From assembly GCA_964467155.1 (NCBI GenBank), contig CAYXNZ010000005.1, positions 2,059-66,058 on the forward strand: a DNA stretch of 64,000 bases, given 5' to 3'. Below are positions 3,903 through 44,700 of this stretch, piece by piece. Position numbers and translations under genes: made by a program. The notes beneath the pieces were generated by a model that searched no databases, had not been told where the DNA came from, and was given only the letters and a program-made list of their open reading frames with translations. This DNA is from an uncultured Gammaproteobacteria bacterium. Lineage in GTDB: Bacteria; Patescibacteriota; Patescibacteriia; Patescibacteriales; GWC2-42-12. Position 1 is the stretch's first letter, and every line of letters begins with the position of its first letter.

Positions 3903-6900
3903 AATTCATTTTTAAACCCCATAAAACTGGAGTAATACCTTTTTCGCTTGAACGCATTTTAATTTTTATCTGCGCATATCTGCCTTTTCTAATATCATCA
4001 TTATATTCTAGACTATTCCATGTCTGTGTAGTGACCCAGTTGAAATTATTCAAGTTACTGTCATTACTTGCCCTGACAAATATCTCAATACTTTGTTTTT
4101 CAGAAGTCATAATTGCTTCCCAGCTAATATCACCCCAGTGCTGATTAACAAAACCACTATCAAAAGTATCTTCCCATACTCCGGACCTTAAAAGTAACGC
4201 TCTATTCAAACCGGTCATGTCGCTATAAGAATAAGTCGTCGAAGGTGCTCCGTCTTCATACGCTTTAAATACTCTCAAACCATCTGTGCCTATTGTAGCA
4301 TTACTCACAGTACTATTAGCACCTAAAATATTCCCACCAGAGTCAAGTACTCTTATTGTTCCTGAGGAATTATTCACAACCCAAATATTTCCTTGTGAAT
4401 CTCCGCACGCGCCATGCGCGTCAGAGCCGCCGCTGTTTATGCGAAACACATAGTCTAATCCGGCAGGATGATTACCAGGAGAAATTTTTAATATCCCGTT
4501 ATTGGTATACGTACTGGGCCATATATTATTATTTAAATCAACCGTAATACCTAGGCCATTGTATCCTGTGCCAAAATAATTTACACCACCTGTTGATGAA
4601 TTTAATCTTATAGCTCCGTGTCCACCATTATACCCACCAAGCCAAACATTATCATCCAAATCAATTGTAATGCCATAACCTCCACCGGCAGGATAGTGAG
4701 TGGTTGTAAAATTATTATTCACGTCTATTTTTGTAGCTCCGTTAGTACCATGAGAAGACCAGATATTACCATTACTATCAATTGCTAATCCGTAAGAACC
4801 TACATTAATCGTTTTTAAAATTTCACAATGCGTGTCATCTCCTGAAATTTTAACAACACCACCGCCAGAGTAATTACCGACCCAGACATCTCCGTTCTTT
4901 TCAATTGCCACACCTCTTGGTCCAGATCCCGTAGCGCAAGTTTTTAAGTGCACTCCATTAATATCAAGCTTTGTCACATTTCCTGAATTTCTGTTAGCAA
5001 TCCAAATGTCTCCTGTCTCTACATTAACAGCTGTTCTCGACGGATTAGATCCGACATTATAAGTGCCGATCAATTGTCCCATTTTTTCCCATGTTCCATC
5101 TACCCACCAACAATCAACCGTACCATCAGTATTTCTTTTACAATCTCTTTTTGGACCGTCAAAAGTTCTCAATTTAGCTACCTTTTCAATGCCACTGTTA
5201 GCTATCCATATATACGGTGTAGGCATTACGCCTAATAATTTTAAATATTCACCTTCGTTTACATCTTCTACGTGACTAGAGTTATTGTCGTCATCATACA
5301 CCACTCCATCGCCTCTACCATTATTAAAATCTATATCCATCGCTTTACATGTCCACTGACAAGTATCACTACAAGCATCAATATTTTCAGTATTTCCATC
5401 TTCACAAACTTCTTCATCACCTTCATCATTAGGGTTTTGCTGTAAACCATCACCGCAATAAGTTTTTACCCAAAGCTCATAATTCTGTCTACCCACTGCA
5501 TCATATTGATCTATGGCCTCCAAGTCTATTTCATAACGTCCGATTGGAACACTAGCTATGCCATCCACCAAGCCAGTTGAACTATCGATATTTAAATCAG
5601 ATATACGCCTATCGCCAAAACGATATTGAGTTATCAAATGATTGTCCTGACTATCTGTTGCTTCAACATCATAACTGTAATAATTTCCTACTCGCACCTC
5701 AGTAACAGGTGTGGTGGTAAAGATTGGTGGATTATTGACTACTGTTATAGTAAAATCTTCTTCACTGGAAGCTCCGTAATTATCAGTCACTGAAATATTC
5801 AATTGATAATCAGTGTCTTGAGGGTATGAACCGACGGGAATACCATCAATTTGAAAAGTGTTATCATCAATTTTTTGTCCTGACAAACCTTGCGGTAATT
5901 GCCCTAAAATATTAAAAGTTAATGGGTAATGATTATCATAATCAGTTGCTCTGATTGTAAAAGGATTGACAACAAAATCATTGTGTCCAGCAACCACAGA
6001 TGCACTATTAACTTCAATGACTGGCGGTTGATTAGTAACAACTACTCTAAAATTTATGTTATCTATACCGCCACGGCCATCATTAACCGTGACTGAAAAA
6101 TAATATTCCCCCGCTTGTCCAACTGATTGAACATAAATCTTTTTTATGTTAGACACTTCGGTGTTCTGTCTTTCTGGAACAGATGACCATTGACTATCTA
6201 TCCAATTATTAAGATTCCCGGCATTAATTTCCCACAAAGAGATTGGCGACAAGTCATCGTTATCTGGATCAAAAGCAGACAGAAAATATTCTAATTTCTG
6301 ACCAGCAACTAAATTAATCACTGCGTATCCAGCCCTTAAACCGCTAGTTGGTAGCTGAATTATCGGTGGATGATTTTCTATCTGTTCAAAATATTCAATT
6401 GTACTTTGAGCGCAGACATTATTCTGCGATGTATCAAAATATCCTGACTCCATAACACTGCAACCACTGTAACTTGAACCATCAGACGAAACGTCAAAAA
6501 CATAAGCTTGGCTGTTTTCAGGCAGATTATCTGGGATTGAACCGGCGAATTCTTTTATTTCGCTATTCCAGCAGGTAGTTTCGTCATAATCATCACAAGT
6601 CCCGAGTTTATTAATTGGATCAACTGGCAACACTATGCCCAATTCAGTCGCTAGATTATCTTGCCAACTGGGCCAAGTTGAGAGAGTCTTATTCGGCAAA
6701 TAGCTACCTGATTCTAATTTAGGATAATAACCATGAATTGCTTTGTAATTTTCTAATGCCCTATTAATCTCAACCATATCGGATAATCTTCTAGTATCTC
6801 TAATTGTTTTAGCTTTCTGACTCAAACAATATTCATTGATTGGACAATTGTCATTAGTCAGACAAACAACATCGCTTGATTGGCTACACATGCCAGGCTC

Positions 6901-12963: not shown

Positions 12964-13002
12964 ATTTACATCCGCCAGAAATGGTGGTTTTAAATTGATT
13001 AT

Positions 13003-13048
13003 TCGGGGGTCGTTCCGCCTATATTGGCGGAGACAGCTGGTTCCCCTG
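13003..13048 (+). pseudogene. Pseudo 5' half of tRNA-Gln with the D-loop replaced by a GC hairpin
   Basis: TCGGGGGTCGT (identical to the tRNA-Gln 5' end), then the hairpin TCCGCC-tatatt-GGCGGA (13014-13031), then GACAGCTGGTT (identical to the D-stem 3' strand plus anticodon stem), then CCCCTG. Confidence 0.7.
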
Positions 13049-13064
13049 TTTAGTGAAAAAATAT

Positions 13065-13135
13065 TCGGGGGTCGTCTAACGGTAGGACAGCTGGTTTTGG
13101 TCCAGTCAATCGGGGTTCGATTCCCTGCCCCCGAG
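13065..13135 (+). tRNA. tRNA-Gln (anticodon UUG)
   Basis: Manual cloverleaf: acceptor TCGGGGG/CCCCCGA (U1:A72, G73), anticodon stem GCTGG/CCAGT with loop TTTTGGT, T-arm CGGGG-TTCGATT-CCCTG. CCA is not encoded. Confidence 0.85.
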
Positions 13136-13183
13136 CAGATTTTTTAAAAAAAATATCGTTATTTTAAATTTAATATAAATACT

Positions 13184-13717
13184 ATGCAGGAACTTATACT
13201 TAATTTTATAAAACAAAATATAACAGATGCTATCTGGATTATTATTTTATTCTTTTTTAGCAGAATAGTTTTAAAGATTATAGTTATGCGGTTTGCGAAG
13301 ATAGTCGATGACGGAGACGATGATTATGAATCACAAAAAGAAAAACGGGCAAAAACTCTAAGTCATATCATCATAACAACCGGGAATATTATTATTTACG
13401 CTATAATTTTAATTATGATTTTAAGTGTATTTGGAGTAGATATTCGACCTATTCTGGCCGGGGCAGGTGTTGTTGGATTGGCAATCGGTTTTGGCGCGCA
13501 ATCATTAGTCAAGGATTTTGTTTCAGGACTTTTTATTTTAGTTGAAAATCAATATGGAATAGGTGATAAGATAAAAATAGGTAGTTTTGAGGGGGTTGTT
13601 ATTAGAATTACGATGCGTTCCACAGTATTAAAAAATAAAGAAGGAATGTTATATTATATTTCTAACGGATTGATAAAGGATGTGCTTAATATGTCTCAAC
13701 AAAAAAAATCTTTATAA
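13184..13717 (+). CDS. Small-conductance mechanosensitive channel (MscS)-like protein, short form
   Basis: 177 aa. The pore helix and start of the beta domain (GLAIGFGAQSLVKDFVSGLFILVENQYGIGDKIKIGSFEGVV) are paralogous to 36878-37732. It ends before the C-terminal alpha/beta domain. Confidence 0.65.
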   Translation: MQELILNFIKQNITDAIWIIILFFFSRIVLKIIVMRFAKIVDDGDDDYESQKEKRAKTLSHIIITTGNIIIYAIILIMILSVFGVDIRPILAGAGVVGLAIGFGAQSLVKDFVSGLFILVENQYGIGDKIKIGSFEGVVIRITMRSTVLKNKEGMLYYISNGLIKDVLNMSQQKKSL

Positions 13718-13729
13718 TATATTAATTTT

Positions 13730-13759
13730 GGTTCGAACATCGTCCACGACCCCGAGCAG
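13730..13759 (+). repeat. tRNA-Gln 3'-end-like direct repeat, copy 1 (att-like)
   Basis: GGTTCGAAcatcgtccacgaCCCCGAGCAG mimics the T-loop and acceptor 3' end of tRNA-Gln (GGTTCGATTCCCTGCCCCCGAGCAG), with a TCGT-cc-ACGA mini-palindrome. The core aacatcgtccacgaccccgagc (13736-13757) recurs at 19332 and 19704. Confidence 0.7.
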
Positions 13760-13763
13760 TTTT

Positions 13764-13792
13764 AAATAGCCCTGAAATAGGGGCTATTTTTG
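13764..13792 (+). terminator. Rho-independent terminator
   Basis: aaatagccc-tgaaata-ggggctattttt. Confidence 0.55.
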
Positions 13793-13927
13793 ATACCTTG
13801 GTAGGGTTTAGAACTTTTAGTTAAGGTAATTTTAGAGTATAATAAATTAATGAACGACGCTGTTGCATTAGATTCTAGAAACTGAGTAATATATAAAAGC
13901 GAAATTTATAATAATCCTTTTAAATTT

Positions 13928-14317
13928 ATGATTGGTTTAAAAAAAATAGACAAGCGCGGCGAAGCTATTCCCGGACTGTTAACGCTCCAAGTGGAAAGAC
14001 CATGGGGCTATTTTAGGCAATTTTGCGAGAACTCACCGGTAACCGTTAAGCTTATTGTTGTTAAACCCAATAAAATTCTGAGTTTACAAAGCCATGCTAA
14101 ACGTTCAGAATTTTGGCGCGTGCTAGAGGGTAGCGGACAAGCGGAGATAGACGGAAAAATGCAATCTCTAAAGATTGAAGACGAATTAATTGTTCCCGTT
14201 AAGGCTAAGCACCGTCTAAGAGCCGGAATTAATGGCTTAGAAGTTTTAGAAATATCATTTGGAGAATTTACCGAGAACGATATTATTCGCTATGAAGATA
14301 AGTATGGACGAATTTAA
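13928..14317 (+). CDS. Cupin-domain protein (mannose-6-phosphate isomerase type II C-terminal-like)
   Basis: 129 aa. ERPWGYF...LSLQSHAKRSEFWRVLEGSG...H is the cupin motif pattern seen in type II PMI cupin domains. Confidence 0.7.
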   Translation: MIGLKKIDKRGEAIPGLLTLQVERPWGYFRQFCENSPVTVKLIVVKPNKILSLQSHAKRSEFWRVLEGSGQAEIDGKMQSLKIEDELIVPVKAKHRLRAGINGLEVLEISFGEFTENDIIRYEDKYGRI

Positions 14318-14322
14318 TTTTT

Positions 14323-17300
14323 ATGTTTAAACTTAAACGCTATGAAGCCGGACCGATTCTTCGCCCCGATGATAAATTAATTTGGGAACGGGGCGGCGTT
14401 TTTAATCCCGGCATAACTAAAATCGGAGATAAAGTATATATGCTTTATCGCGCCGTCGGGGAAGATGGAACTTATGTTTCTCGCTTGGGCTTAGCCACCA
14501 GTCGGGATGGCGTTAATTTTACGCGCGTTTCTCAGGAACCAGTCTTCGGGCCGAAAGAATTTTTTGATAAATGGGCAACAGAAGATCCGCGCATTACAAA
14601 AATCGCTAATGATTACTACGTTACTTATGTGGCGGTGGCGCAACGTATTATGAATAACAGCCAACCGATAAATCGCTTCTTGCCGCTTGAAACTTCGACC
14701 GCTCTGCTAGAAACTCATGATTTTTTGACCTATGAAAATTTAGGAGTCATTTCTCCGCCTAATTCAGATAATAAAGATATTGTTTTGTACCCGCGTAAAA
14801 TCAAAGGGCGCTATTATATGCTCCATCGCCCAAATCGCTGGTCCCAGGAATGGTTTAAGGGGCCATACGAAAAATATGTCAATGAAGGCTTACCTTGCAA
14901 TGTTAAAGATTTGCCGGCTAAGCCCAGTATTTGGATTTCCTCATCAGAAGATCTTAGTAATTGGGTAGATCATCGTTTATTAATAAGCCCAGCGCATCCC
15001 ACTGACGCTAAAATTGGGCCGGGTTTGCCGCCATTGGAAACGCCGGACGGCTGGCTGATTATTTATCATCATGTAGAAAAGGGAGCGGAAACAAATAAAC
15101 CGATCTATTCTATAAGAGCGGCTTTGTTTGATCGCAAAGACCCTACTCGCCTCATCGCCGAGCTGCCTTATGATATTTTATCTCCGGAAATGCCGTACGA
15201 AACAGAAAATTGTTCCGGTATTATTTTTCCAACCGGCGGATTTATAGCCGGAGATAATCTTTATGTTTATTATGGAGCATCTGATCGCTATGTTTGTTTG
15301 GCCACCGGGTCGCTATCTGAACTTTTATCAGAACTTAAAAAAGAGGCCGTTAAAAAAACGTCTTTAAAAAATATCAAACAATTAAGCAATAAAATGTGGG
15401 TTGTTTTTTTAGCAACATATCCGCCCCGGGAATGTGGCATTGCCACTTTTACCTCGGATTTGATTAAAAATTTTGATTCTCTTTTTGCGCCTCGCGAGGA
15501 GACAAAAGTAGTGGCGATGAATACGAATTTTTTACAGACTTATAACTATCCTAAAAAAGTTATTTTTCAAATTTCGGAAAATAAGCCAGCCGACTATTTG
15601 GTGGCCGCCAAAAAATTAAATGAATTGACCGAAGTTAAACTCGTCTCTATTCAGCATGAATTCGGGATTTTTGGAACTAATTATGGCGAAAATCTCTTAA
15701 TTTTTTTGGCTGAATTAAAAAAGCCGGTAGCGGTTACTTTTCATTCTGTTTTGCCGCAACCGACTGTAGAGATGAAGCAAGTGGTGCAAAAAATAATCAA
15801 GCGCGCTGATCGTCTAATCGTTATGACCAATCAATCTAAGAATATACTGGAAAAAGTTTATGCGGCGCCAAATGAAAAAATAAAAATTATTCCGCACGGA
15901 ATCCATCCCTTACCTTATGCCGATGTTAAGGTTGCTAAATTAGCCCTAGGTTTTGCTGATAAAAAAGTGCTATCAACTTTTGGCCTGTTAAGCCGAAACA
16001 AGGGAATTGAAAATGCTATTGCCGCTCTTCCGCCAATAATTGCCGCCTGTCCGAATGTTGTTTATTTGGTAATCGGAGCAACTCATCCGGTAGTGTTACG
16101 CCGAAAAGGGGAAACTTATCGTAATCAATTGATTGCCCAAACTCTAAAACTAGGCGTTCAGGATCATGTTATTTTTTATAACGAATATTTAGAAACCAGT
16201 GAGTTATTAAAATTTCTTCAGGCGACTGATATTTATTTATCACTTTCGCAAAATCCGGATCAGGCCGTGTCAGGAACTTTAACCTATGCTTTAGGCGCGG
16301 GCCGTCCGGTAATTTCTACTTCTTTCGGCCAAGCCAAAGAAATGATAACGCCGGAAGTAGGCGTGTTGGTAGATTTTCAAGATAGCGCCGGTATCGCGCG
16401 AGAAACGATCGCTTTACTTAGTGATTCTGATCGCTGGGCAACTATGAGTCGAGCGGCATATTTTAGAACTCGGGGCATGGCTTGGCCGAATGTCGCCCTT
16501 TCCTATATGCGTGAATTTATAGAGATATCTCCGGAATTGGCGAAAAAAGAAAAAAATCTGCCGGCCATTAAATTAACTCATCTTTCCCATCTCACGGATG
16601 ATTTTGGTATTTATCAATTCGCGATTTTAGATAAACCGGACCCGCAGTGGGGTTATACGCTTGATGATAACGCCCGCGCTTTAATTGTTATTTGTCGGTA
16701 TTATCAAATTTATAGTGGTATTACCGCTAAACGTTTAGCTGATATTTATTTAAATTTTTTAGAACGAGCGGCGCAAAGCTCTGGAGGATTTTTCAATTAT
16801 TTTACAGCTGACTATCAAGCGGACCATTCTCGTAATCAGGACGAAAATTTAGAAGATTCCGAAGCGAGAGCATTGTTTGCCTTAGCAACCGCTTCCGCCA
16901 GTAAACTACCGGATGAGTTAAAAAAACGGGCGACAGACTTATTGAATAAACAGTGGGACAAATATAGCCAAGTACTTTCTCCCCGCGCCGTCGCTTTTCA
17001 CATTAAAGCCCTGGTGGCTTGGCAAGAAGTTGCGACTAATAAAAAAATAGTTGAGCAACTAACTCATTACGCTGACTTTCTTTTAACCTTATTTAATAGT
17101 AATTCTACTAATGATTGGCAATGGTTTGAACAGTCTTTGACTTACTCTAACGCTATCCTACCAGAAGCTTTGTTATTGGCATTTAAGGTTACCGGCAAAC
17201 AGGCTTATTTTACGGCCGGACAAGCCGCTTTAAATTTTTTAATTAGCCAATCTTTTCAAGAAGATGTTTGTGTGCCGATTGGACAAAACGGCTGGTACAA

Positions 17301-17583
17301 ACGGGGTGGGGAAAAAGAAATTTACGATCAACAGCCCGAAGAAGTGTCAGCCTTAGTGCAAACGCTGAAAACAATACATAAACTTACCGGCGATATATTT
17401 TATTTACAAAAAATGACCCAAGCCTTTAATTGGTTTTTAGGCAACAATCTACTTAATCAAGTTGTTTATTCTCAAGCCACCGGTGGCTGCTATGACGGGT
17501 TAGGAGAACAACAAATTAATCTCAATCAAGGGGCGGAATCAACAATTTCCTATCTTTTAGCCAGATTGGCAGTTAATTCTTAA
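14323..17583 (+). CDS. Three-domain fusion: GH130-like glycoside phosphorylase + GT4 glycosyltransferase + C-terminal domain of unknown function
   Basis: 1086 aa. The N-terminal part (..GGVFNPG..MLYRAVGEDG..SRLGLATSRDGVNF..EDPRITK) looks like GH130/DUF377. The middle part (MWVVFLATYPPRECGIATFTSDL ... GTLTYALGAGRPVISTSFGQAKEMI) looks like GT4. The last ~350 aa are unassigned. GC content is visibly higher than in the flanks. Confidence 0.75.
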   Translation: MFKLKRYEAGPILRPDDKLIWERGGVFNPGITKIGDKVYMLYRAVGEDGTYVSRLGLATSRDGVNFTRVSQEPVFGPKEFFDKWATEDPRITKIANDYYVTYVAVAQRIMNNSQPINRFLPLETSTALLETHDFLTYENLGVISPPNSDNKDIVLYPRKIKGRYYMLHRPNRWSQEWFKGPYEKYVNEGLPCNVKDLPAKPSIWISSSEDLSNWVDHRLLISPAHPTDAKIGPGLPPLETPDGWLIIYHHVEKGAETNKPIYSIRAALFDRKDPTRLIAELPYDILSPEMPYETENCSGIIFPTGGFIAGDNLYVYYGASDRYVCLATGSLSELLSELKKEAVKKTSLKNIKQLSNKMWVVFLATYPPRECGIATFTSDLIKNFDSLFAPREETKVVAMNTNFLQTYNYPKKVIFQISENKPADYLVAAKKLNELTEVKLVSIQHEFGIFGTNYGENLLIFLAELKKPVAVTFHSVLPQPTVEMKQVVQKIIKRADRLIVMTNQSKNILEKVYAAPNEKIKIIPHGIHPLPYADVKVAKLALGFADKKVLSTFGLLSRNKGIENAIAALPPIIAACPNVVYLVIGATHPVVLRRKGETYRNQLIAQTLKLGVQDHVIFYNEYLETSELLKFLQATDIYLSLSQNPDQAVSGTLTYALGAGRPVISTSFGQAKEMITPEVGVLVDFQDSAGIARETIALLSDSDRWATMSRAAYFRTRGMAWPNVALSYMREFIEISPELAKKEKNLPAIKLTHLSHLTDDFGIYQFAILDKPDPQWGYTLDDNARALIVICRYYQIYSGITAKRLADIYLNFLERAAQSSGGFFNYFTADYQADHSRNQDENLEDSEARALFALATASASKLPDELKKRATDLLNKQWDKYSQVLSPRAVAFHIKALVAWQEVATNKKIVEQLTHYADFLLTLFNSNSTNDWQWFEQSLTYSNAILPEALLLAFKVTGKQAYFTAGQAALNFLISQSFQEDVCVPIGQNGWYKRGGEKEIYDQQPEEVSALVQTLKTIHKLTGDIFYLQKMTQAFNWFLGNNLLNQVVYSQATGGCYDGLGEQQINLNQGAESTISYLLARLAVNS

Positions 17584-17857
17584 CTTTATAAAAATAAATC
17601 GCATTATTTTTTATCTCTGATTGTTTTATTAGTTTTATCTCTGCTTTTTCGTTTTCTGAGTGCCGTTTTCTAATCAATAGCTTCGCAACATCTGATTAGG
17701 AGTTTGAAGCCCCAAACTAAGGTGGAGTCTTAATTTTCTTCATAATTAGCCATTCGAGTTCGAAAGCAGTCCCTCTAGGAGAGCAGAGTAGAATGAGTAT
17801 GAAGAAAATCAATAAAAAAATAAAAAATATGCTATTTATTATTTATATATTTTAGTA

Positions 17858-19315
17858 ATGTTTTTAAGAAAAATTATAAAAAAGAATAGTTGGATTTTTG
17901 TTGCCAATTTGATTATAAGTTTGATTTTATCTTCAACGCGAAGAGGTGTTGACGCTACATTCTTTAATTTAGTGCCTGCTATATTTGTTTTGTTTTTATT
18001 ATTGCCCCTAGTAAGCGGAATTATATTGGTATTAATTCAAAATAAAAATAGGAGTTACGAATTTTTGCCGAATCTATTGTTCGGTTCCTGTCTGAATAAC
18101 GCTATTATTATTTTGGTTATAAGTTCAACCGAATATTTCCGTCATGGTTATGCATATTGCCAGTTCATCGATATTTTTGAAATGATTCATTTATTTCTAC
18201 CTTTGTTTGCCATTTCTATTTTTGGCGGTTTGATTGGGTTGGTTATCAAAGGCACTTCTATACAATTTAAGAAATATCCCGATTCAAAAATAACCTTGGT
18301 TCTCAGGAAAATATTTGGAGGAATCTTTTTAAGCATCGGGGCAATCGGGTCATCCGTAGCTATCGTGGTTTTTTTAATATTAGTGCTTCATCCTTCAAGT
18401 TCTTGGCTTAATATGGTGATGGTTGATTTTAAACTTATAGAAGTGGTGGGATTTATGGCTTATTACTTATTACTTTTGTCAGCTTTGTCTATTGTTCTGA
18501 TTCCCTTGATTTTAATCATGATTTTGGGCTTAATGCTGTTCTTTTTTAAAAAGAAATTTTTTAATAAAAAACTATTTTCTCGCCTGATTATATATTTTTT
18601 TATCTGGCTAGTGATATTTTTACTTCTATCTTCTTACACCAAATCTAACTTTGAATTGAAAAAAGCAGAAATGAAAGAAAATCAAATAGAAAGACATTTT
18701 AATATTAAAAATTTTGATAATATTTACATTTCGCGTTTTGTTAAATTTGATGAAATAATAATCGGACAAGGCGATCAATTTGATATCATGACTAGCGGGA
18801 GCCAATACGATCAGATAGGTTTAAATTTTGAAAAAAAAGATGACGATACTTTATTGATAAAAAGATCTGAACTTGAAACTTATTATAATACTGATACATG
18901 GACAATGGAAAATAGAAATGCCTTATTTCCTGCAGGTACAAAACATTTAACAATAAAGATTATAATGCCAGATATAAGTAAGATAAAATCTGAGGGTGGA
19001 CATATCGAATTGCTTGATTTTAATATCGATAATATTGATATTAAATTAAATAAAAGGTTTAATAATATAAAAGGAAATATTTCAGTCAAAGATACATTAA
19101 AGCTTGATACCAAAGGTGGGATAATAAACTTAGTAGGATCGGCAAAAAATTTAGTAATAAATTCAGGTGACTGTTGGATAGAAATGGACAAGTTTAGTGT
19201 CGAAAATGCGACAATCAATGCAAAAAACACAAGCAGATTGAATGTAAATGTGAGTAACAATATGAAAATAGAGTTAAACAAAAATTCTGGCATCACTAAT
19301 CATTATATCGAATAA
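17858..19315 (+). CDS. Polytopic membrane protein with C-terminal DUF2807/DUF4097-like beta-helical (putative adhesin head) domain
   Basis: 485 aa with ~8 hydrophobic helices. This is followed by FNIKNFDNIYISRFVKFDEIIIGQGDQFDI..LIKRS.. and repeated I-x-L-x-V strands. Confidence 0.55.
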   Translation: MFLRKIIKKNSWIFVANLIISLILSSTRRGVDATFFNLVPAIFVLFLLLPLVSGIILVLIQNKNRSYEFLPNLLFGSCLNNAIIILVISSTEYFRHGYAYCQFIDIFEMIHLFLPLFAISIFGGLIGLVIKGTSIQFKKYPDSKITLVLRKIFGGIFLSIGAIGSSVAIVVFLILVLHPSSSWLNMVMVDFKLIEVVGFMAYYLLLLSALSIVLIPLILIMILGLMLFFFKKKFFNKKLFSRLIIYFFIWLVIFLLLSSYTKSNFELKKAEMKENQIERHFNIKNFDNIYISRFVKFDEIIIGQGDQFDIMTSGSQYDQIGLNFEKKDDDTLLIKRSELETYYNTDTWTMENRNALFPAGTKHLTIKIIMPDISKIKSEGGHIELLDFNIDNIDIKLNKRFNNIKGNISVKDTLKLDTKGGIINLVGSAKNLVINSGDCWIEMDKFSVENATINAKNTSRLNVNVSNNMKIELNKNSGITNHYIE

Positions 19316-19331
19316 ATATAATTTTAATTCT

Positions 19332-19353
19332 AACATCGTCCACGACCCCGAGC
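19332..19353 (+). repeat. Direct repeat, copy 2 (aacatcgtccacgaccccgagc)
   Basis: Exact 22-bp match to 13736-13757, 17 nt after the stop of 17858-19315. Confidence 0.8.
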
Positions 19354-19361
19354 CTCGAATA

Positions 19362-19392
19362 AAAAACATCCGCCCTTAGCGGATGTTTTTTA
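19362..19392 (+). terminator. Rho-independent terminator
   Basis: aaaaaacatccgc-cctta-gcggatgtttttt. Confidence 0.65.
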
Positions 19393-19408
19393 TTTTTCTC
19401 CTAAATTA

Positions 19409-19417
19409 TGCTATAAT
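19409..19417 (+). promoter_or_regulatory. Extended -10 promoter element TGCTATAAT
   Basis: The same 9-mer is found upstream of two other plus-strand genes (21508, 38390). Here it lies 48 nt upstream of the GTG start at 19465. Confidence 0.45.
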
Positions 19418-19464
19418 TTAGAATAATAATATCTTTATTTAAATAAAAATTAATAATTAAAACT

Positions 19465-19689
19465 GTGAAAATCAAAAAGTTATTTTTATTAAGCTGGAGA
19501 AAACTTTGGATAGTTGTTGTTGGAGGATTTATTTCAATAATTCTGCACAACTTAATAAGTGAATTGACGGGAACAGAGGAAGTTTTCTTCTTCATGCTCG
19601 TAATTTTCGTGTTACCCATTTATATTTTAATTGCCGTCATATACAGCTTGATTTACAAAATCAAAAATAGAAACCATAAGAATCCTTAA
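19465..19689 (+). CDS. Small two-helix membrane protein (hypothetical)
   Basis: 74-aa ORF with a GTG start and two hydrophobic segments. It is bracketed by a promoter-like element, direct repeat copy 3 and a terminator. Confidence 0.4.
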   Translation: MKIKKLFLLSWRKLWIVVVGGFISIILHNLISELTGTEEVFFFMLVIFVLPIYILIAVIYSLIYKIKNRNHKNP

Positions 19690-19703
19690 ATTACACCTAC
19701 TTA

Positions 19704-19721
19704 AACATCGTCCACGACCCC
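19704..19721 (+). repeat. Direct repeat, copy 3 (aacatcgtccacgacccc)
   Basis: Exact 18-bp match to the core of copies 1 and 2, 15 nt after the stop of 19465-19689. Confidence 0.75.
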
Positions 19722-19749
19722 AAATAAAAAATACTCAAAAAAATAAGAT

Positions 19750-19776
19750 AGCCCCGACCACTATGTGATCGGGGCT
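19750..19776 (-). terminator. Rho-independent terminator of the beta-CASP gene
   Basis: agccccga-ccactatgtga-tcggggct. The T-run is on the minus strand (the A-run at 19735-19749 on plus). Confidence 0.6.
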
Positions 19777-19781
19777 TTCTG

Positions 19782-36877: not shown

Positions 36878-37732
36878 CTACTTCCCTGCCTGATGCACCA
36901 CCATCTGTGGAAATGGAATCTCAATCCCCTCTTTATCAAAAGCAATTTTTAATCTTTTGCGGAACTCTCCAGCAACTGCCCATTGTTGAAGTGGTTTGGT
37001 ATCGCCTAATATCTTTACTATTATTGCTGAATCAGCAAACTCATTTACTCGAACAAAATGCGGTGCCTCAATTATAAATTCTTTCCATTCTGAATCATTA
37101 AATAATTCTTGTCCAACTTTATCTATCACTTTTATTAATTTTTCTAAATCAGTATCGTAAGCAACACCTAAATCAATATTTACTCTGGCAAATTCTTTTG
37201 ACAGATTAGCAACCTTGGTAATCTCACCGTGAGGAATATGATGAACTGTACCGTCTAAATCTCGTAAAACCGAAACGCGCAAATTAATATCCTCAACTGT
37301 GCCAGAGATATCTCCAACACGAATGACATCACCAACGCGATATTGATTTTCCAAAATTATAAATAATCCTGAGATAAGATCACGGATTAAATACTGACCG
37401 CCAAAACCAACTGCTAATCCAATAATCCCAGCCGCTGCAATCATCGGTCCAATTTCTACGCCAAACTCAGACACAATCATAATAGCCGCTACTATCCAAA
37501 TAATTAATTTAAGTGTTGTGTCAAAAATCTTGATTAAAGTATCTTCTCTTTTTTTCTCCGCTTCTGGGCTAATAAAATTTTTCGAAACCACTGTTTTTCT
37601 AACAGTTTTTTCAATTAATGAACCACTGAATGTTTTTATCAACCAAGCAACAATTATAATCGCTACTATTTTTAAACCATGAGTAATTAACCACGGTTCA
37701 AGTGTCTTGAATATATTTTCCACAATTTCCAT
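36878..37732 (-). CDS. mscS: Small-conductance mechanosensitive channel MscS
   Basis: 284 aa with 3 TM. The pore helix GLAVGFGGQYLIRDLISGLFIILENQYRVGDVI is present, along with full beta and alpha/beta cytoplasmic domains. Confidence 0.85.
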   Translation of the reverse strand: MEIVENIFKTLEPWLITHGLKIVAIIIVAWLIKTFSGSLIEKTVRKTVVSKNFISPEAEKKREDTLIKIFDTTLKLIIWIVAAIMIVSEFGVEIGPMIAAAGIIGLAVGFGGQYLIRDLISGLFIILENQYRVGDVIRVGDISGTVEDINLRVSVLRDLDGTVHHIPHGEITKVANLSKEFARVNIDLGVAYDTDLEKLIKVIDKVGQELFNDSEWKEFIIEAPHFVRVNEFADSAIIVKILGDTKPLQQWAVAGEFRKRLKIAFDKEGIEIPFPQMVVHQAGK

Positions 37733-38786: not shown

Positions 38787-41700
38787 ATGATTAAAAAAAC
38801 TAAAAAAATGAAACTTCTATCAAAGCTTTTTATTATAGCTTTGGTTATTAGCTTTGGCGCTCTAGGTAGTGCTTTTTCACCAATTGAACAAGCGCAAGCG
38901 GCGGCGGATATCACTCTATCAGATGATACCATCAATGAAGGTTCGGAAAATGAAGAATTAATTACTGTCACGTTAGCAGGTGATACCTTTGTTGGTTCTC
39001 TTAATACAGCCAACTGGGCGGTTACCAATCTCCCAGCTGGAGTAGTAAAATCAACTATCTCCAGGACAGACGAAACTACTGTCACGATTGCTTTAAGCGG
39101 TGATAGAGCTGTGGATTATGATACCAGTATTGAAAATGTGACTGTGACAATAGCAGCTGCTGAATTTACAAGTTCTGCAGTCCAAGTTTCAGCAAGCACT
39201 GGCGTAACTTTAGTAGCCACTGCTGACGATGAATCTGTTACTGCTGCCTGGGCAACTTCTCCTGGTACAAGTGGAGCAGAAGCTACAATGGATGCTGAAG
39301 TTCTAACTGTTACCTTAGCTGGCGGTACTTTGATTTCAGAGCAAGTTACTATTGGTAATATCACCGCTACTGGAACAGCTGTTAGTGCAGCAGGAGTAAC
39401 TATTGAAAGTGTTACCTGGACTGATGCCACACACTTTGATGTTGCTTTGGCTTGGACTGCGACAGATTATGACGAAGATAAAACACTTATTATTAATGTA
39501 GCCGCAGCTGCCTATGATGAAGGAGCTATCGCCATTGCTACTGACGAGATTACTCTGACGGCAACTGTTGAGCCAATTGCGATTGCTCTCAGTGACAATA
39601 CTATCGCTGAAGGTTCGGAAAGTGCAGGAGTGATTAATGTGACACTGACAGAAGATACTTTTATAGCAACCTTGGTTCAAGGAAACTGGGCGGTTACCAA
39701 CCTTCCAACTGGAGTAACAAAAGGAACTGTTACCAGGTTGAGCGATACTACTGCTACGATCGCTTTAGTTGGCGACAGAGATGAAGATTATGATACCAGT
39801 ATTACTAACGTGATTGTGACTGTTCAGGCTGGAGACTTGACTCTTTCAGATGCTATAGTCGCTTCAGATGGCACCGGTGTGACCTTAGTAGCCACTGACG
39901 ATGCTGAATCTATTGCAATTACAAATGATGGAATAACAGAAGGCGCAGAAGGTGGCGAAGTTATTACCGTTACTTTAACAGGCGGTACATTTGCAGACCC
40001 ATTAGTCCCAGCAAGCTGGGTAGTTACCAACCTTCCAAGCGGCGTTACAGCTGGTGATCCCGAGAGGACAAGCGCTACAGAAGCCACGATTACTTTAAGT
40101 GGAAACAGAGATGTAGATTATGATTCAAATATTACTGATTTAACAGTAACAGTAGCTTCTGATGACATAGACGATATTGATGTTCCTGTTTCAATAGCTA
40201 CAGGTGTTACATTCACGGCCTCTAATGATGCAGAATCTGTTGCTGCTACTTGGAATGGGGATCCTGGAACTAATGGAGCAGAGGCAACTTTAGATGCAGA
40301 TATAATAACTGTTACTCTTACTGATGGTACTTTTGTTAAAGCTAGTGTGGATAATATTACAATAAGTGCCGGTGCAGGAATAACAAAAGAAAGTGTAACT
40401 TATACCGATTCAACTAATGTAGATATATTATTGGCTTGGGATGGAACAGATTTTGACGATCATGAAACAATAACAGTTAGTGTGCCGGTCACGGCTTACG
40501 CAGATTCAACAAGCGGCGACGCGATTACAGATACAATTAATACTGTTGCAACTGATGATGGTGAATCTATTGCAATTACAAATGATGGAATAACAGAAGG
40601 CGCAGAAGGTGGCGAAGTTATTACCGTTACTTTAACAGGCGGTACATTTGCAGACCCATTAGTCCCAGCAAGCTGGGTAGTTACCAACCTTCCAAGCGGC
40701 GTTACAGCTGGTGATCCCGAGAGGACAAGCGCTACAGAAGCCACGATTACTTTAAGTGGAAACAGAACTGTAGATTATGATTCAAATATTACTGATTTAA
40801 CTGTGACAGTGGCTGCTGGTGACATAGATGATTCTGGCGGCTCTGTTTCAATAGCTACTGGTGTTACATTCACGGCAACTGATGATGGTGAATCTATTGG
40901 AGTTGCCTGGGCAGGAACTCCCGGTACTAATGGAGTAGAAGCGACAATGGATGCTGAAATAGTAACTGTTACTCTATCTGACGGTACTTTGATTGAAGGT
41001 TCGGTTAATGCTACGAATATTACTGCTACTGGAACAGCCGTTGATGATGCTGGAGTAACTATTGAAAGTGCTACTTATGTCGATGCTACAAGTTTTACTG
41101 TCGCTTTGGCTTGGGATGACACGGATTATGATGTTAATAAAATTTTAACTATTAATGTAGCCGCAGTTGCCTACGATGATGCAGGTGGCGCCATCACCGG
41201 AGATATTACTTTGACAGCAACTGTTGAGCCACCTTCGATAGCCTTGACAGACGATACTATCAATGAGGCTGCAGAAACTGGCGAACTGATTACCGTCACG
41301 TTGACAGGTGATACTTTTGTTGAGAGTTTGACTCAAATAAACTGGACAGTCACCAACCTCCCAACTGGAGTATCAAAAGGAACTGTCACCAGGACAGGCG
41401 CTACTACTGCTACGATTGCTTTAAGTGGAAACAGAACTGTAGATTATGATACAAGTATTGAAAATGTGACTGTGACTATTGCAGCCGATGAACTTTATTC
41501 ATATACTCTTGGTTCAATTTTAGCAAGCACCGGCGTAACTTTGGTAGCCGATGCTAGCGCTGAAACTATCGGAGTTGCCTGGGCAGGAACTCCTGGCACT
41601 AGTGGAGTAGAGGTGACTATGGATAGCGAAATCGTAACTGTTACCTTGACTGAAGGTACTTTGATTTCAGATCAGGTTAATATGACTAATATCACCGCTA

Positions 41701-44700
41701 CTGGAACAGCTGTTAATAGCGCGGAAGTAACTATTGAAAGTGTTACTTATACTGACACCACACACTTTAATGTTGCTTTGGCATGGAGTGGACTAAATTA
41801 TGATGTTGAAAAAACACTTACCATTAATGTAGCTGGAGCTACCTATGATGAAGGAACTGATCCTATTACTGACGATATTACTTTGACGGCGACTGTTGAG
41901 CCAACAGTAGAAGTAACCATGGGTGCTAATACTTTTAAGGTTGAAGAATCAACCCTGGTTACATTTACCTTCTCATCAGCTCCAACTGGATTTACAGTTG
42001 ATGATGTGACTACTATTGATAATGGTCTTCTTTCAGGATTCACAGTTACTGGTGATACAAAGATTTACACTGCAACTTTTACACCAACTGATGATACAGA
42101 AGCCGCAACAAATGTTATTACAGTTGGAACTGATTGGACTGATGGCACAAGCGCTCCATTAGCAGGAGATAGTTCTCCTAATTATACTATTGATACGAAG
42201 GAACCAACAATTACTATTACATCAAATGACGAAGCTCTATATACCGGAGATGCTGTCGCCACAATTACTTTTGATATTATTGGAGGCACGGTAGACTTTG
42301 CCCTTGAAGATGTTGTCGCGGTTGGTGGCAATCTTAATGCTTTCACAGAAGTATCAGCTGGAGTTCAATATACTGCTATCTTTACCGCGAGTAACGATAG
42401 TACTACTGGCGCAACAATTAATGTAGCGGCTGGAACATTCACAGATGCTGCTGGAAATAACAATACAGTTGCAATTCAAGAAACAATGACGGTTGATACT
42501 CTTGCTCCAACAATAAATACTGTTACTTCTAATGCTACAGAAACTGGTACATTAAAAGTGGGTGATGCGATTATTTTCACAGTTACACCTACTATCCAAG
42601 AAGCTGGCTTAACTGTTCTTCCTGCTACTTATAATGGAGGTGCTTTATCATGGTCAACTGGCGATAGTGGAGTAACCTATACCGCAACCTATACTGTTGC
42701 AGAAGACCAAACTGACCAGGATCCAGCTTTACAATTATTAGGCGTTACTTTGACAGATGCGGTTAGTAATACTGGCGCTGGTGTTAATGGTACTGATGTA
42801 GCAAAATTGATTGATGCTAATTCACCTGACATAACTTCTGTTACTTCTAATGCTACAGTAGAAGGTACATTAAAAGTAACCGATATGATTGTTTTCACAA
42901 TTACACCTGTTGTTCAAGAAGCTGGCTTAACTGTTGCTCCTACTACTTACAATGGAGGGACATTAGAATGGTCAAGTGTTGATGGAACAACCTATATCGC
43001 AACTTATACTGTTGTAGAAGACCAGGACGATCAGGATCCAGCTTTACAATTAACAAGCGTTACTTTGACAGATGCAGCTGGGAACGATGGTGTTTCTGCT
43101 GATGGCGCCGATGTAGCGAAGAAGATTGATGCTAATACTCCAACCGCAGCCTTTACGGCAGCCACAGATAATGTCGGTTCTGTCATGGGTCCTTTGAATA
43201 CTGGCGACACGACCGATGATACTGAGCTTCTACTTACCGGTGCCAATGAAACCGGTTCGACTGTGGAAGTCTTTAACGGAGCAGCATCGTTAGGCGCAGC
43301 CACAGTTAATGGCACTGGTTGGACTTACTCCGCTACTGTTGTTAATGGCACAACTTATCAATTCAATATTAAAGAAACAGACGCGGCAGGAAATATTAGC
43401 GATGCAACAGATGACTTCACAGTGATAGGAGATACCGCCGCTCCAACAGCCGTAGTTGTAGCCAACGAGGTTGCTATTTATGACAGTGATGCTGGTACTG
43501 ATGCATTTATAATTACTGCAACATTCTCTGAGGCTATGGATAATACAAAGATTCCAACCGTAGTATTCGATGCTGCTTTAGACTCAACTTTAACAAGTCC
43601 AGAAGGTGCTTGGAGTACAGTTGCTCATGATAATGATACATATACCTGGACTTATGATATTGCAGATGCAGGTGTTACAGTTGCAGATGTTGATGTCACT
43701 GTTGATGGTGGTGATGATATAGCAGGTAATGATCAGACTGCTAAAACTAATACAGATTACATTGATGTTGATACAGAAAATCCAACCACAACAATTTCCG
43801 ATGACGAAGATGGCGTAGCCAATATTACCGGTGGCAATATTACTTATACTTTTACCTTCGGTGAAGGTGTAACAGATTTTACTGTTGCTGAAGCTGTTGT
43901 AACGGGTGGTACTAAAGCTGTGGATTTCGCATCAGGTGTTTCTGGTGAGGCCGTCTATACTCTTGTAGTTACCCCAGACTCTGATTCTACAACTAATATT
44001 ACTGTCAATGTCGCCGGTGGCGTAGCTATTGATATAAACGGTAATGACAATGTTGTAGCTGCTGAATCAACACAGACAGTTGATACTCTGAGACCAACCG
44101 TTGGCATTACTGATGATAATGCTGGTACCGTCAATGACGGTAATCCCGAAGTGCTTTATACTTTTGAATTCAGCGAAAATGTTACCGGCTTTACCACCGA
44201 CGATGTCACTGTGACCGCTGGAGGAATCGCAGGCGAATTCAGCGCCACTGATGGCAGCAATACATATACTTTGGCTGTGACTGCGGACGATGGCAGTACC
44301 ACAAATATTAGTTTAACCATTTCTAATGCTGATTTAATTGATGCTAATAGCAATACTATGGCCGCTGATGCGACTGACACCGATCAAGCGGTTGATAGAA
44401 TAGAGCCAACCCTCTCAAGCGCTGCGCGAGATAACAATACACAAATTACTGTTACTCTAAGTGAACTTGCTAATGGAAGTAGCATTACTGATGCAAGTGA
44501 TGGTGGTTTCGTTGTTGCTGAAACTGACGCAGCTGAAACTACTTATGCAGTTTCGGATATCACTCCAGGAGTTACTAACGATTTAGTAGTCTTAACTGTT
44601 GCTGATCTCGGAGTATCTGCTAAAGAAGGCATTACCGTTACTTACTCTTCTGCAAACAACGGAGCCGTAACCGATGTAGCAGAGAATGATCTTGCTACAG

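Follow-up and report, generated by a model that had tools for sequence, protein, structure and literature searches.

We analyzed a 64-kb stretch of contig CAYXNZ010000005.1 (hereafter the window), in which a short repeat recurs on the 3' side of a tRNA-Gln gene. The region 13137-19721 is probably an accretion array devoid of a recombinase: four segments gathered at the 3' end of the tRNA-Gln gene and bordered by half-sites of the attP type of serine integrases. This reading is carried by the anatomy of the repeat, its linkage to the tRNA, the variable content of the region, the overlap of such sites with large serine recombinase (LSR) genes in relatives, and a site geometry that is 5 nt longer than that of the tRNA end. 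An initial annotation, made from the sequence of the window, had proposed serial accretion of small islands at one tRNA attachment site; the tRNA linkage, the rarity of the repeat and the variable content in relatives support this proposal. The features of the region are given below by position and strand; related loci from other genomes and metagenomes are denoted by L numbers, and many of them belong to the Candidate Phyla Radiation (CPR).

13065-13135, plus strand: tRNA-Gln(UUG) gene (ARAGORN; Rfam, 56.4 bits)
13137-13757, plus strand: cassette 1, with a truncated MscS-like gene at 13184-13717 (177 aa); ends in site A1
13730-13757, plus strand: site A1, GGTTCGAACATCGTCCACGACCCCGAGC, a perfect 28-nt motif A; identical sites occur in many CPR contigs
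13758-17784, plus strand: cassette 2, with a cupin/mannose-6-phosphate isomerase-like gene at 13928-14317 and a GH130::GT4 fusion gene at 14323-17583 (Pfam); ends in site B
13764-13789, plus strand: hairpin at the start of the cassette 2 leader (folding and terminator scan)
17757-17784, plus strand: site B, AGTTCGAAAGCAGTCCCTCTAGGAGAGC, a degenerate match (6 mismatches) to motif B (AGTTCGGAAGCTGTCCCTGTACCCGAGC), a sister family of motif A
17785-19353, plus strand: cassette 3, with a gene for a DUF2807-like membrane protein at 17858-19315 (Pfam); ends in site A2
19326-19353, plus strand: site A2, AATTCTAACATCGTCCACGACCCCGAGC, with 3 mismatches to motif A
19354-19721, plus strand: cassette 4, with a small open reading frame (ORF) of 74 aa at 19465-19689 (plus) or, alternatively, of 72 aa at 19401-19619 (minus); ends in site A3
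19357-19395, plus strand: hairpin at the start of the cassette 4 leader (fold z = -5.2), followed at 19409-19417 by TGCTATAAT, an extended -10-like box
19698-19721, plus strand: site A3, TACTTAAACATCGTCCACGACCCC, a truncated motif A without GAGC, at the distal edge of the variable region
19722-19781, no strand: conserved right chromosomal flank, AAATAAAAAATACTCAAAAAAATAAG...; also present after the last site of L008
19782-21353, minus strand: beta-CASP RNase gene, convergent with the array

Scanning of the window revealed exactly three copies of the 18-mer AACATCGTCCACGACCCC, all on the plus strand and starting at 13736, 19332 and 19704, where the initial annotation had placed them. No further match was present in the window with up to 3 mismatches allowed (0.01 expected from shuffled sequences), and the copies were confined to the 3' side of tRNA-Gln. 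Copies 1 and 2 were 91% identical across 35 nt. The 18-mers begin 18, 16 and 14 nt past the stops at 13717, 19315 and 19689, respectively, and are followed by hairpins at 13764-13789, 19357-19395 and 19750-19776 (terminator scan and folding), so the reported position of the copies shortly past plus-strand stops and ahead of hairpins was borne out, with measured distances of 14-18 nt. A match to motif B with 7 or fewer mismatches, such as that of site B, was reached in none of 200 shuffles. Because this degenerate site divides the second of the three segments originally delimited by the repeats, their number has to be corrected to four. The three sites and the additional degenerate one all lie within 6.6 kb of tRNA-Gln in the 64 kb, and the many dispersed copies of a repetitive extragenic palindrome (REP)-like repeat were not found. 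Site A1 is proposed to represent an attP-type left half-site with its core, and site A3 an attR-like junction between an element-side half-site and the chromosomal flank.

The 3' end of the tRNA-Gln gene reads GGTTCGATTCCCTGCCCCCGAGC, with the core CGAGC at 13132-13136; we propose it as an attB-type left half-site with the crossover core, and as the array's anchor. GGTTCGA and CCCCGAGCAG are found both in this end and in copy 1, in agreement with the earlier noticed likeness of that copy to the T-loop and acceptor 3' end of tRNA-Gln. Taken together, the repeats share with the tRNA only GGTTCGA and CCCCGAGC(AG), while the middle part differs and is 5 nt longer. The repeats are not direct copies of the tRNA 3' segment, and the repeat is better conserved across lineages than the 3' ends of those lineages' own tRNAs. 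A location directly 3' of a tRNA, with the repeats on the strand of the tRNA, was found in the window and in 17 related loci.

In a scan of one genome per species, the motif was found in 43 stretches. About 25 of these were low-GC CPR contigs (Falkowbacteria, Shapirobacteria, Saccharibacteria and metagenome-assembled genomes, MAGs) with the full sequence (G/A)GTTC(G/T)AACATCGTCCACGACCCCGAGC(A), and the other stretches were coding coincidences; a metagenome scan provided 40 more loci. Over 70 unique instances, the conserved block extends from -6 to +26 and ends sharply after GAGC, beyond which only a generic A-run, a hairpin and a T-run were present. The site is rare in each genome, contigs of 235-593 kb yielding one matching stretch apiece, and same-strand arrays are frequent (five sites in 2.8 kb in L085, three each in L049 and L070). 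The upstream tRNA was tRNA-Gln or tRNA-Asn, on the strand of the site, in 17 of the 17 loci having one, and L050 contributes a further tRNA-Asn, apparently interrupted by a group I intron; the sole other tRNA (Thr, in L046) is positioned downstream of the site. Several contigs terminate at the site or at the tRNA, as expected of a strain-variable or repeated locus. The more distant neighbours of the beta-CASP gene (L009, L010) had neither sites nor synteny. The site was unmatched in the phage database, and a scan of viral contigs for the core motif gave 12 matches, all of them coding-sequence coincidences in GC-rich phages.

Clustering of all ORFs in the fetched loci yielded one recurrent recombinase family, LSRs of 440-550 aa with Resolvase, Recombinase and Zn_ribbon_recom domains. 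An LSR gene adjoining a site was seen in the related loci L069, L088, L093, L095, L101 and L112, and none in the window. In L069, L093 and L095, the gene lies directly 3' of the tRNA and is convergent with it; its ORF runs antisense into the tRNA, and the C-termini read ...WLGDRDSNPD.... In L088/L112, and also at another position of L095, the gene abuts motif A and its C-terminus, ...LLGVVDDVRTKI (reading ...LLGVVDDVRT...), is the antisense translation of the site, while in L101 the gene abuts motif B and its C-terminus is ...LLAYRDSFRTF. Besides the recombinase, the LSR-bearing elements encode a Rep of the rolling-circle type, and their cargo comprises restriction-modification or other defence genes; the far end of the autonomous ones is a motif-A site. 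C-terminal remnants of LSRs were found after sites or tRNAs in L063, L075, L094 and L067/L079, which shows that recombinase genes were lost in situ. The family comprises at least 1315 proteins at E ≤ 1e-20, the named ones nearly all from Patescibacteria lineages, and is only 22-25% identical to known phage integrases. As a separate observation, the Rep genes of L113 (159-987) and L095 (2466-3293) had 87% DNA identity, the recombinases of the two loci belonging to different LSR subfamilies; this mismatch suggests modular shuffling between elements.

The 3' ends of CPR tRNA-Gln and tRNA-Asn genes read GGTTCGAATCCCTGTCCCCGAGC, with 23 nt from the GGTTC box to GAGC. The sites form three families of 28 nt each: motif A, motif B and motif C (GGTTCCAACTATATCCCAAACTCCGAGC). 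The same offset was seen in the recombinases, whose tails were compared in the 120 closest LSR homologues as offsets from the conserved PxHP anchor. These offsets were fixed in 49 of 49 tRNA-type tails (..DSN..) and in 12 of 12 attP-type tails (..xRT..), the latter comprising at least 8 different sequences, and the two types differed by exactly 5 nt. In serine integrases, the motif of the zinc-ribbon domain lies 5 bp nearer the centre in attB than in attP, and this underlies directionality (Rutherford et al. 2013, PMC3783163). The distal box was displaced in the same way here (23 versus 28 nt, with LSR tails 5 nt apart), and by this rule the repeat is built like a left half-site of the attP type, and the tRNA end like one of the attB type.

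The crossover is placed in or beside CGAGC because the tRNAs adjoining LSRs are intact and because variation between sites begins right after GAGC. In addition, the sites L095b and L101 have a common right arm from CGAGCAG on, with unlike left arms, which confines the crossover to the core. A crossover at the internal mini-palindrome TCGT-CC-ACGA was rejected, since it would destroy the tRNA, yet LSR-adjacent tRNAs are intact. At the LSR-linked junctions L067 and L088, hand alignment revealed an inverted GGnnnTAA-like box about 27 nt to the right of GAGC; this is suggestive of an attachment site of about 56 bp centred at the end of GAGC, at GAGC|(C)A. No right-arm consensus was found across the 70 sites.

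Comparison of loci with shared flanks located the breakpoints. The window and L029 have an identical tRNA-Gln and a syntenic HtrA gene and 202-aa gene, and their alignment stops at the last base of the tRNA, L029 having one cassette versus four in the window. On the other side, the beta-CASP gene of L008 is 90% identical to that of the window, and homology reaches copy 3 (19704) and is lost upstream; the cargo of L008 is a cassette encoding a 113-aa Cupin_2 protein between two site variants. L058 and L065 have a common left flank and tRNA-Asn, and their sequences differ beyond the tRNA. In a pair of loci from one metagenome, L074 and L076, identity is 98% as far as ...CCCCGAGC of tRNA-Gln (position 432); beyond it the two are unrelated, until they rejoin at another CCGAGC. 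Thus, the tRNA 3' end and the last site are the exact limits of the variable region. The differing cassette content for which the initial annotation proposed to look was therefore found, in pairs with conserved flanks (window/L029, window/L008, L058/L065 and L074/L076). The opposite outcome envisaged there, a terminator motif common throughout the genome and unrelated to the tRNA, with cassettes syntenic in all relatives, was not observed.

In the mechanism that we propose, each repeat would be the attP-type left half-site and crossover core (CGAGC) of an LSR attachment site, imitating the T-loop and acceptor 3' strand of the tRNA with 5 extra bp between the distal GGTTCGAA box and the core. 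Crossover would take place at the last bases of the tRNA, which would stay intact; the incoming segment would land directly after the tRNA, leaving an attP-type half-site at its far end, and later insertions would displace older segments outward. Each cassette would be followed by an attP-type left arm and then by the right arm and hairpin of the next-older cassette. The array would accordingly be ordered as truncated MscS/A1, cupin and GH130::GT4/B, DUF2807/A2, small ORF/truncated A3, and finally the chromosomal flank with the beta-CASP terminator. If insertion always occurred at the tRNA, cassette 1 would be the youngest. The presumed enzyme is an LSR, and the exact crossover position and the insertion order are likewise putative, being read from sequence comparison. 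The recombinase genes would all have been lost from the window, or a recombinase would act in trans from elsewhere. An empty site would read tRNA-Gln ...CCCCGAGC joined to AAATAAAAAATACTC.... The truncated MscS gene, the truncated site A3 and the decayed site B are in keeping with an array whose turnover is no longer fast.

Several points weigh against this interpretation. All the support is comparative, and no recombination was observed. In the textbook view, attB is the sole partner with which serine integrases recombine attP, and attL is none; repeated insertion beside an already occupied tRNA (attL) is not explained by it. The absence of an integrase, as stated in the initial annotation, holds for the 64-kb window: no LSR was found there with four CPR LSR probes, and no XerD- or Hin-like gene either, the latter being a weak test because the probe sequences were approximate. 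The right half-sites have weak dyad symmetry with the left ones. In population look-ups by exact protein match with three flanking or cassette proteins, the array was identical on about 10 population contigs from several samples of the saline-lake type (JGI 3300005916 and others; ENA ERZ273155xx); the search for an empty site thus found the same array on every contig recovered and no empty site, and no circular contigs were found among the LSR-bearing loci. Finally, base composition does not mark the cassettes as foreign. The cupin and GH130::GT4 genes have a G+C content of 0.40-0.41 (0.406 for GH130::GT4) versus a window mean of 0.345, which places them in the top 11% of equal-sized segments; their reported GC-richness is real relative to the immediate flanks, but not exceptional across the window. 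Since the cassettes were no outliers in G+C or tetranucleotide composition, composition is a weak argument for a foreign origin. The top tetranucleotide outlier of the window is 39000-45500 (distance 0.42-0.47; mean 0.25, standard deviation 0.075), which deviates much more strongly than the cassettes do.

It is also possible, although we doubt it, that the cassettes are independent, integron-like mobile units: small circles, each comprising a conserved leader, one gene or a few, and a single attP-type site, captured and excised at the tRNA by a recombinase encoded elsewhere. Dense arrays of tiny cassettes, such as the five sites of L085, and conserved leaders (hairpin, tRNA-like box and TGnTATAAT) would agree with such units, as would the occurrence of homologous cassette genes at varied array positions and tRNAs (L066 versus L058; DUF2807 in the window, L055 and L082). 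The sites are perfectly conserved between unrelated flanks, and 50 of 77 have a co-oriented ORF ending within 60 nt upstream. However, neither a circular cassette nor an empty site was recovered among the population contigs and LSR-bearing loci, the array of the window is invariant in its population, and the LSR remnants beside sites indicate that at least some cassettes are decayed larger elements. Similarly tentative is the extension of these units to the whole phylum, by which an LSR-run, integron-like system of cassette capture might operate across Patescibacteria, with docking at tRNA-Gln and tRNA-Asn, pseudo-tRNA-end sites of about 28-33 nt, and single-gene cassettes with their own terminator/promoter leader exchanged in trans between distant CPR lineages.

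A role at the RNA level is very unlikely. The repeat would then be a tRNA-mimicking element of the 3' untranslated region, for example a processing or stability signal before the terminator, and its link to variable genes would be incidental. Its position just past stops and ahead of terminator hairpins, its T-loop-like box and acceptor 3' strand, and the co-orientation of most sites with the upstream ORF agree with such an element. However, the cassettes contain no 5' partner for the acceptor stem, and the site has no stable fold, only the downstream terminators folding. Rfam returned only the tRNA at the gathering threshold in the window and no match for the sites at E up to 10, and neither an acceptor/T-arm mimic nor a covariance match was found. 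It is the sequence and not the pairing that is conserved, with its sharp end at GAGC; the site is oriented like the tRNA, irrespective of the gene beside it (that of the cassette in L029 is encoded on the other strand), and homology between relatives breaks at the site.

A classical integron with attC sites and an IntI-type tyrosine recombinase, or a cluster of attC sites lacking an integrase (CALIN), is scarcely credible: co-oriented small cassettes without an adjacent integrase do resemble CALINs, but the site is no imperfect palindrome with R''/L''-L'/R' boxes, its GC-rich core has no inverted partner downstream, R''/R' core pairs are absent, the anchor is a tRNA and no IntI, attI or Pc was found, an approximate XerD probe, a weak test, found no tyrosine recombinase in the window or the loci, the cassettes apparently have their own promoters, and the site imitates the end of a tRNA, with LSR genes overlapping it. 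The integron-style cassette array proposed initially is therefore retained as an analogy, and not beyond that, in view of the lack of an attC-like palindrome, the promoter-like leaders and the presence of LSR rather than IntI in relatives.

The gene content of the accretion array (truncated MscS, cupin, GH130::GT4 and DUF2807) agreed with the initial annotation by Pfam. The protein of cassette 1 contained only MS_channel_1st and MS_channel_2nd, and was 46% identical to the full-length MscS encoded in the window at 36878-37732. Cassettes 2 and 4 are the two that open with a hairpin leader. A homologue of the hairpin 13764-13789 follows a motif-A site in L058/L070 (84% identity over 95 nt with L058), and this hairpin is the equivalent of the element-side right (P') arm. 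The DUF2807 gene of cassette 3 was also found in other contexts in L055/L089, with 77-82% amino acid identity, and in L082 it is followed by motif A and a different right flank. In cassette 4, small ORFs on opposite strands overlap within 19401-19689, with a GTG start for the 74-aa plus-strand ORF and an ATG start for the 72-aa minus-strand one. The plus-strand ORF, annotated initially, is present and has the look of a small membrane protein, with a weak PrgI match and a promoter-like box upstream; however, gene callers of the population contigs pick the minus-strand ORF instead.

A leader module is shared by L085 (1-3000, minus strand), L049 (5100-7000), L076 (433-620) and the window (about 13803-13843). 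It consists of a terminator hairpin, then a tRNA-like box resembling a degenerate 3' part of tRNA-Gln without the 5-nt insertion (e.g., GGTTCGAATCCCTGTTGGG), and lastly an extended -10-like TGnTATAAT. The box in L076 holds the TTCGAGT T-loop variant of its own genome's tRNA. Judging from this module, the cassettes appear to bring their own promoter.

Regarding the flanks of the array, a pseudo 5' half of tRNA-Gln was found at 13002-13050, 62 nt upstream of tRNA-Gln proper. TTCGGGGGTCGT and GACAGCTGGTT are common to both; the pseudo half ends in the anticodon loop, and has the D arm swapped for the hairpin TCCGCC-TATATT-GGCGGA (stable fold, -25.6 kcal/mol, z = -3.3). It is kept in the relatives L029 and L071, and may be the scar of another integration system using the anticodon loop, or a leader element. 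On the right, the terminator at 19750-19776 is bidirectional and common to the array and the convergent beta-CASP RNase gene, whose product has its nearest named relatives in Falkowbacteria and unclassified Patescibacteria MAGs. By its neighbouring genes, the window belongs to Patescibacteria (CPR).

Some of the related loci have features of their own. In L050 (7366-8000, minus strand), the tRNA-Asn gene appears to be split by an insert of about 550 nt with a group I intron (Rfam, 81 bits) and was missed by ARAGORN; an S-adenosylmethionine (SAM) riboswitch lies nearby (5724-5830). The only cassette that separates tRNA-Gln from the site in L027 (3111-3684) codes for a HicB/HicA-like pair, recognized by sequence motifs only (e.g., KHGKGSHVLVKHP); this cargo would be a toxin-antitoxin system. 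The site-bearing low-GC (0.29-0.44) contigs L027, L029, L030, L035, L039 and L049 are titled 'uncultured Gammaproteobacteria' (third party annotation assemblies), as are L050, L056, L058, L059, L065 and L066, L029 being also gene-syntenic with the window. L026 is titled Endomicrobiaceae, and L061 Planctomycetota. For these oddly titled contigs, a wrong label or a wrong bin for what is CPR sequence is probable.

The genomes of CPR bacteria are tiny and contain few recognised mobile elements, and the ways in which these bacteria gain and swap genes are poorly understood. A conserved, searchable site marking hypervariable arrays beside two tRNA genes would open up the variable part of their gene repertoire, to which surface, glycan, defence and toxin-antitoxin genes belong here. 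The natural pair of a tRNA end and a tRNA end with 5 additional bp, present in several independent families, is comparative evidence consistent with the spacing model of attP and attB. For applications, the LSRs point to a large untapped integrase family with a short, defined and conserved target. The general phenomenon of tRNA-anchored islands with partial-tRNA scars and successive insertions is already known, for example from tycheposons. In the searchable literature on integrons and serine recombinases in Patescibacteria, we found no account of the CPR site, of the 5-bp rule or of LSR-linked arrays at tRNA-Gln/Asn.

In the tycheposons of Prochlorococcus, an integrase, a replication module and cargo are inserted at tRNA genes, newcomers push older elements deeper into the island, and partial tRNAs and degenerate remnants lie across the hypervariable island; 910 of 937 elements use tyrosine recombinases and a minority LSR, and the repeats copy a segment of the host tRNA (Hackl et al., bioRxiv 10.1101/2020.12.28.424599). 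The tRNA-anchored island, the partial-tRNA scars and the successive insertions are alike in the two systems. Unlike tycheposons, the present sites are a pseudo-tRNA end that is independent of lineage and has a constant 5-nt insertion, the LSR ORF of relatives runs through the site, and many cassettes are single genes of 0.4-1.5 kb.

The sites of the Listeria A118-type LI integrase (PMC3783163) resemble the present ones in having the same distal box in the attP and attB half-sites, displaced by 5 bp, and, as in the CPR relatives, a recombinase gene beside attP; their attP measures about 50-56 bp with a central crossover dinucleotide, to which the site of about 56 bp suggested by hand alignment would compare. 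In contrast, the system described here targets the 3' end of a tRNA, places the box some 4 bp more distant from the presumed centre than in LI integrase, and is known from sequence only, and the long tandem arrays are not predicted by canonical recombination restricted to attP and attB.

Integron and superintegron arrays, such as those of Vibrio cholerae repeats (VCR) in Vibrio, consist of co-oriented, mostly single-gene cassettes with a conserved site, are strain-variable and grow at a fixed anchor. Co-oriented small cassettes with a conserved site between them, variable content and one growth anchor were found here as well; however, the anchor is a tRNA and not attI, there is no folded palindromic attC, the recombinase is a serine and not a tyrosine one, and the cassettes apparently come with a terminator and promoter leader of their own.

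The integrative and conjugative elements of actinomycetes (AICEs) of the pSAM2 type, as far as they are described in the available part of PMC2440964, are small elements at tRNA genes with a site-specific recombinase and a rolling-circle-type replication initiator; the same part gives them tyrosine integrases and conjugation functions, with no cassette arrays. Integration at a tRNA gene and the combination of a recombinase with Rep are common to both systems, and the CPR Rep gives a RepSA-like match. Compared with AICEs as described in that part of the source, the CPR relatives have a serine enzyme, and the elements reported here form cassette arrays.

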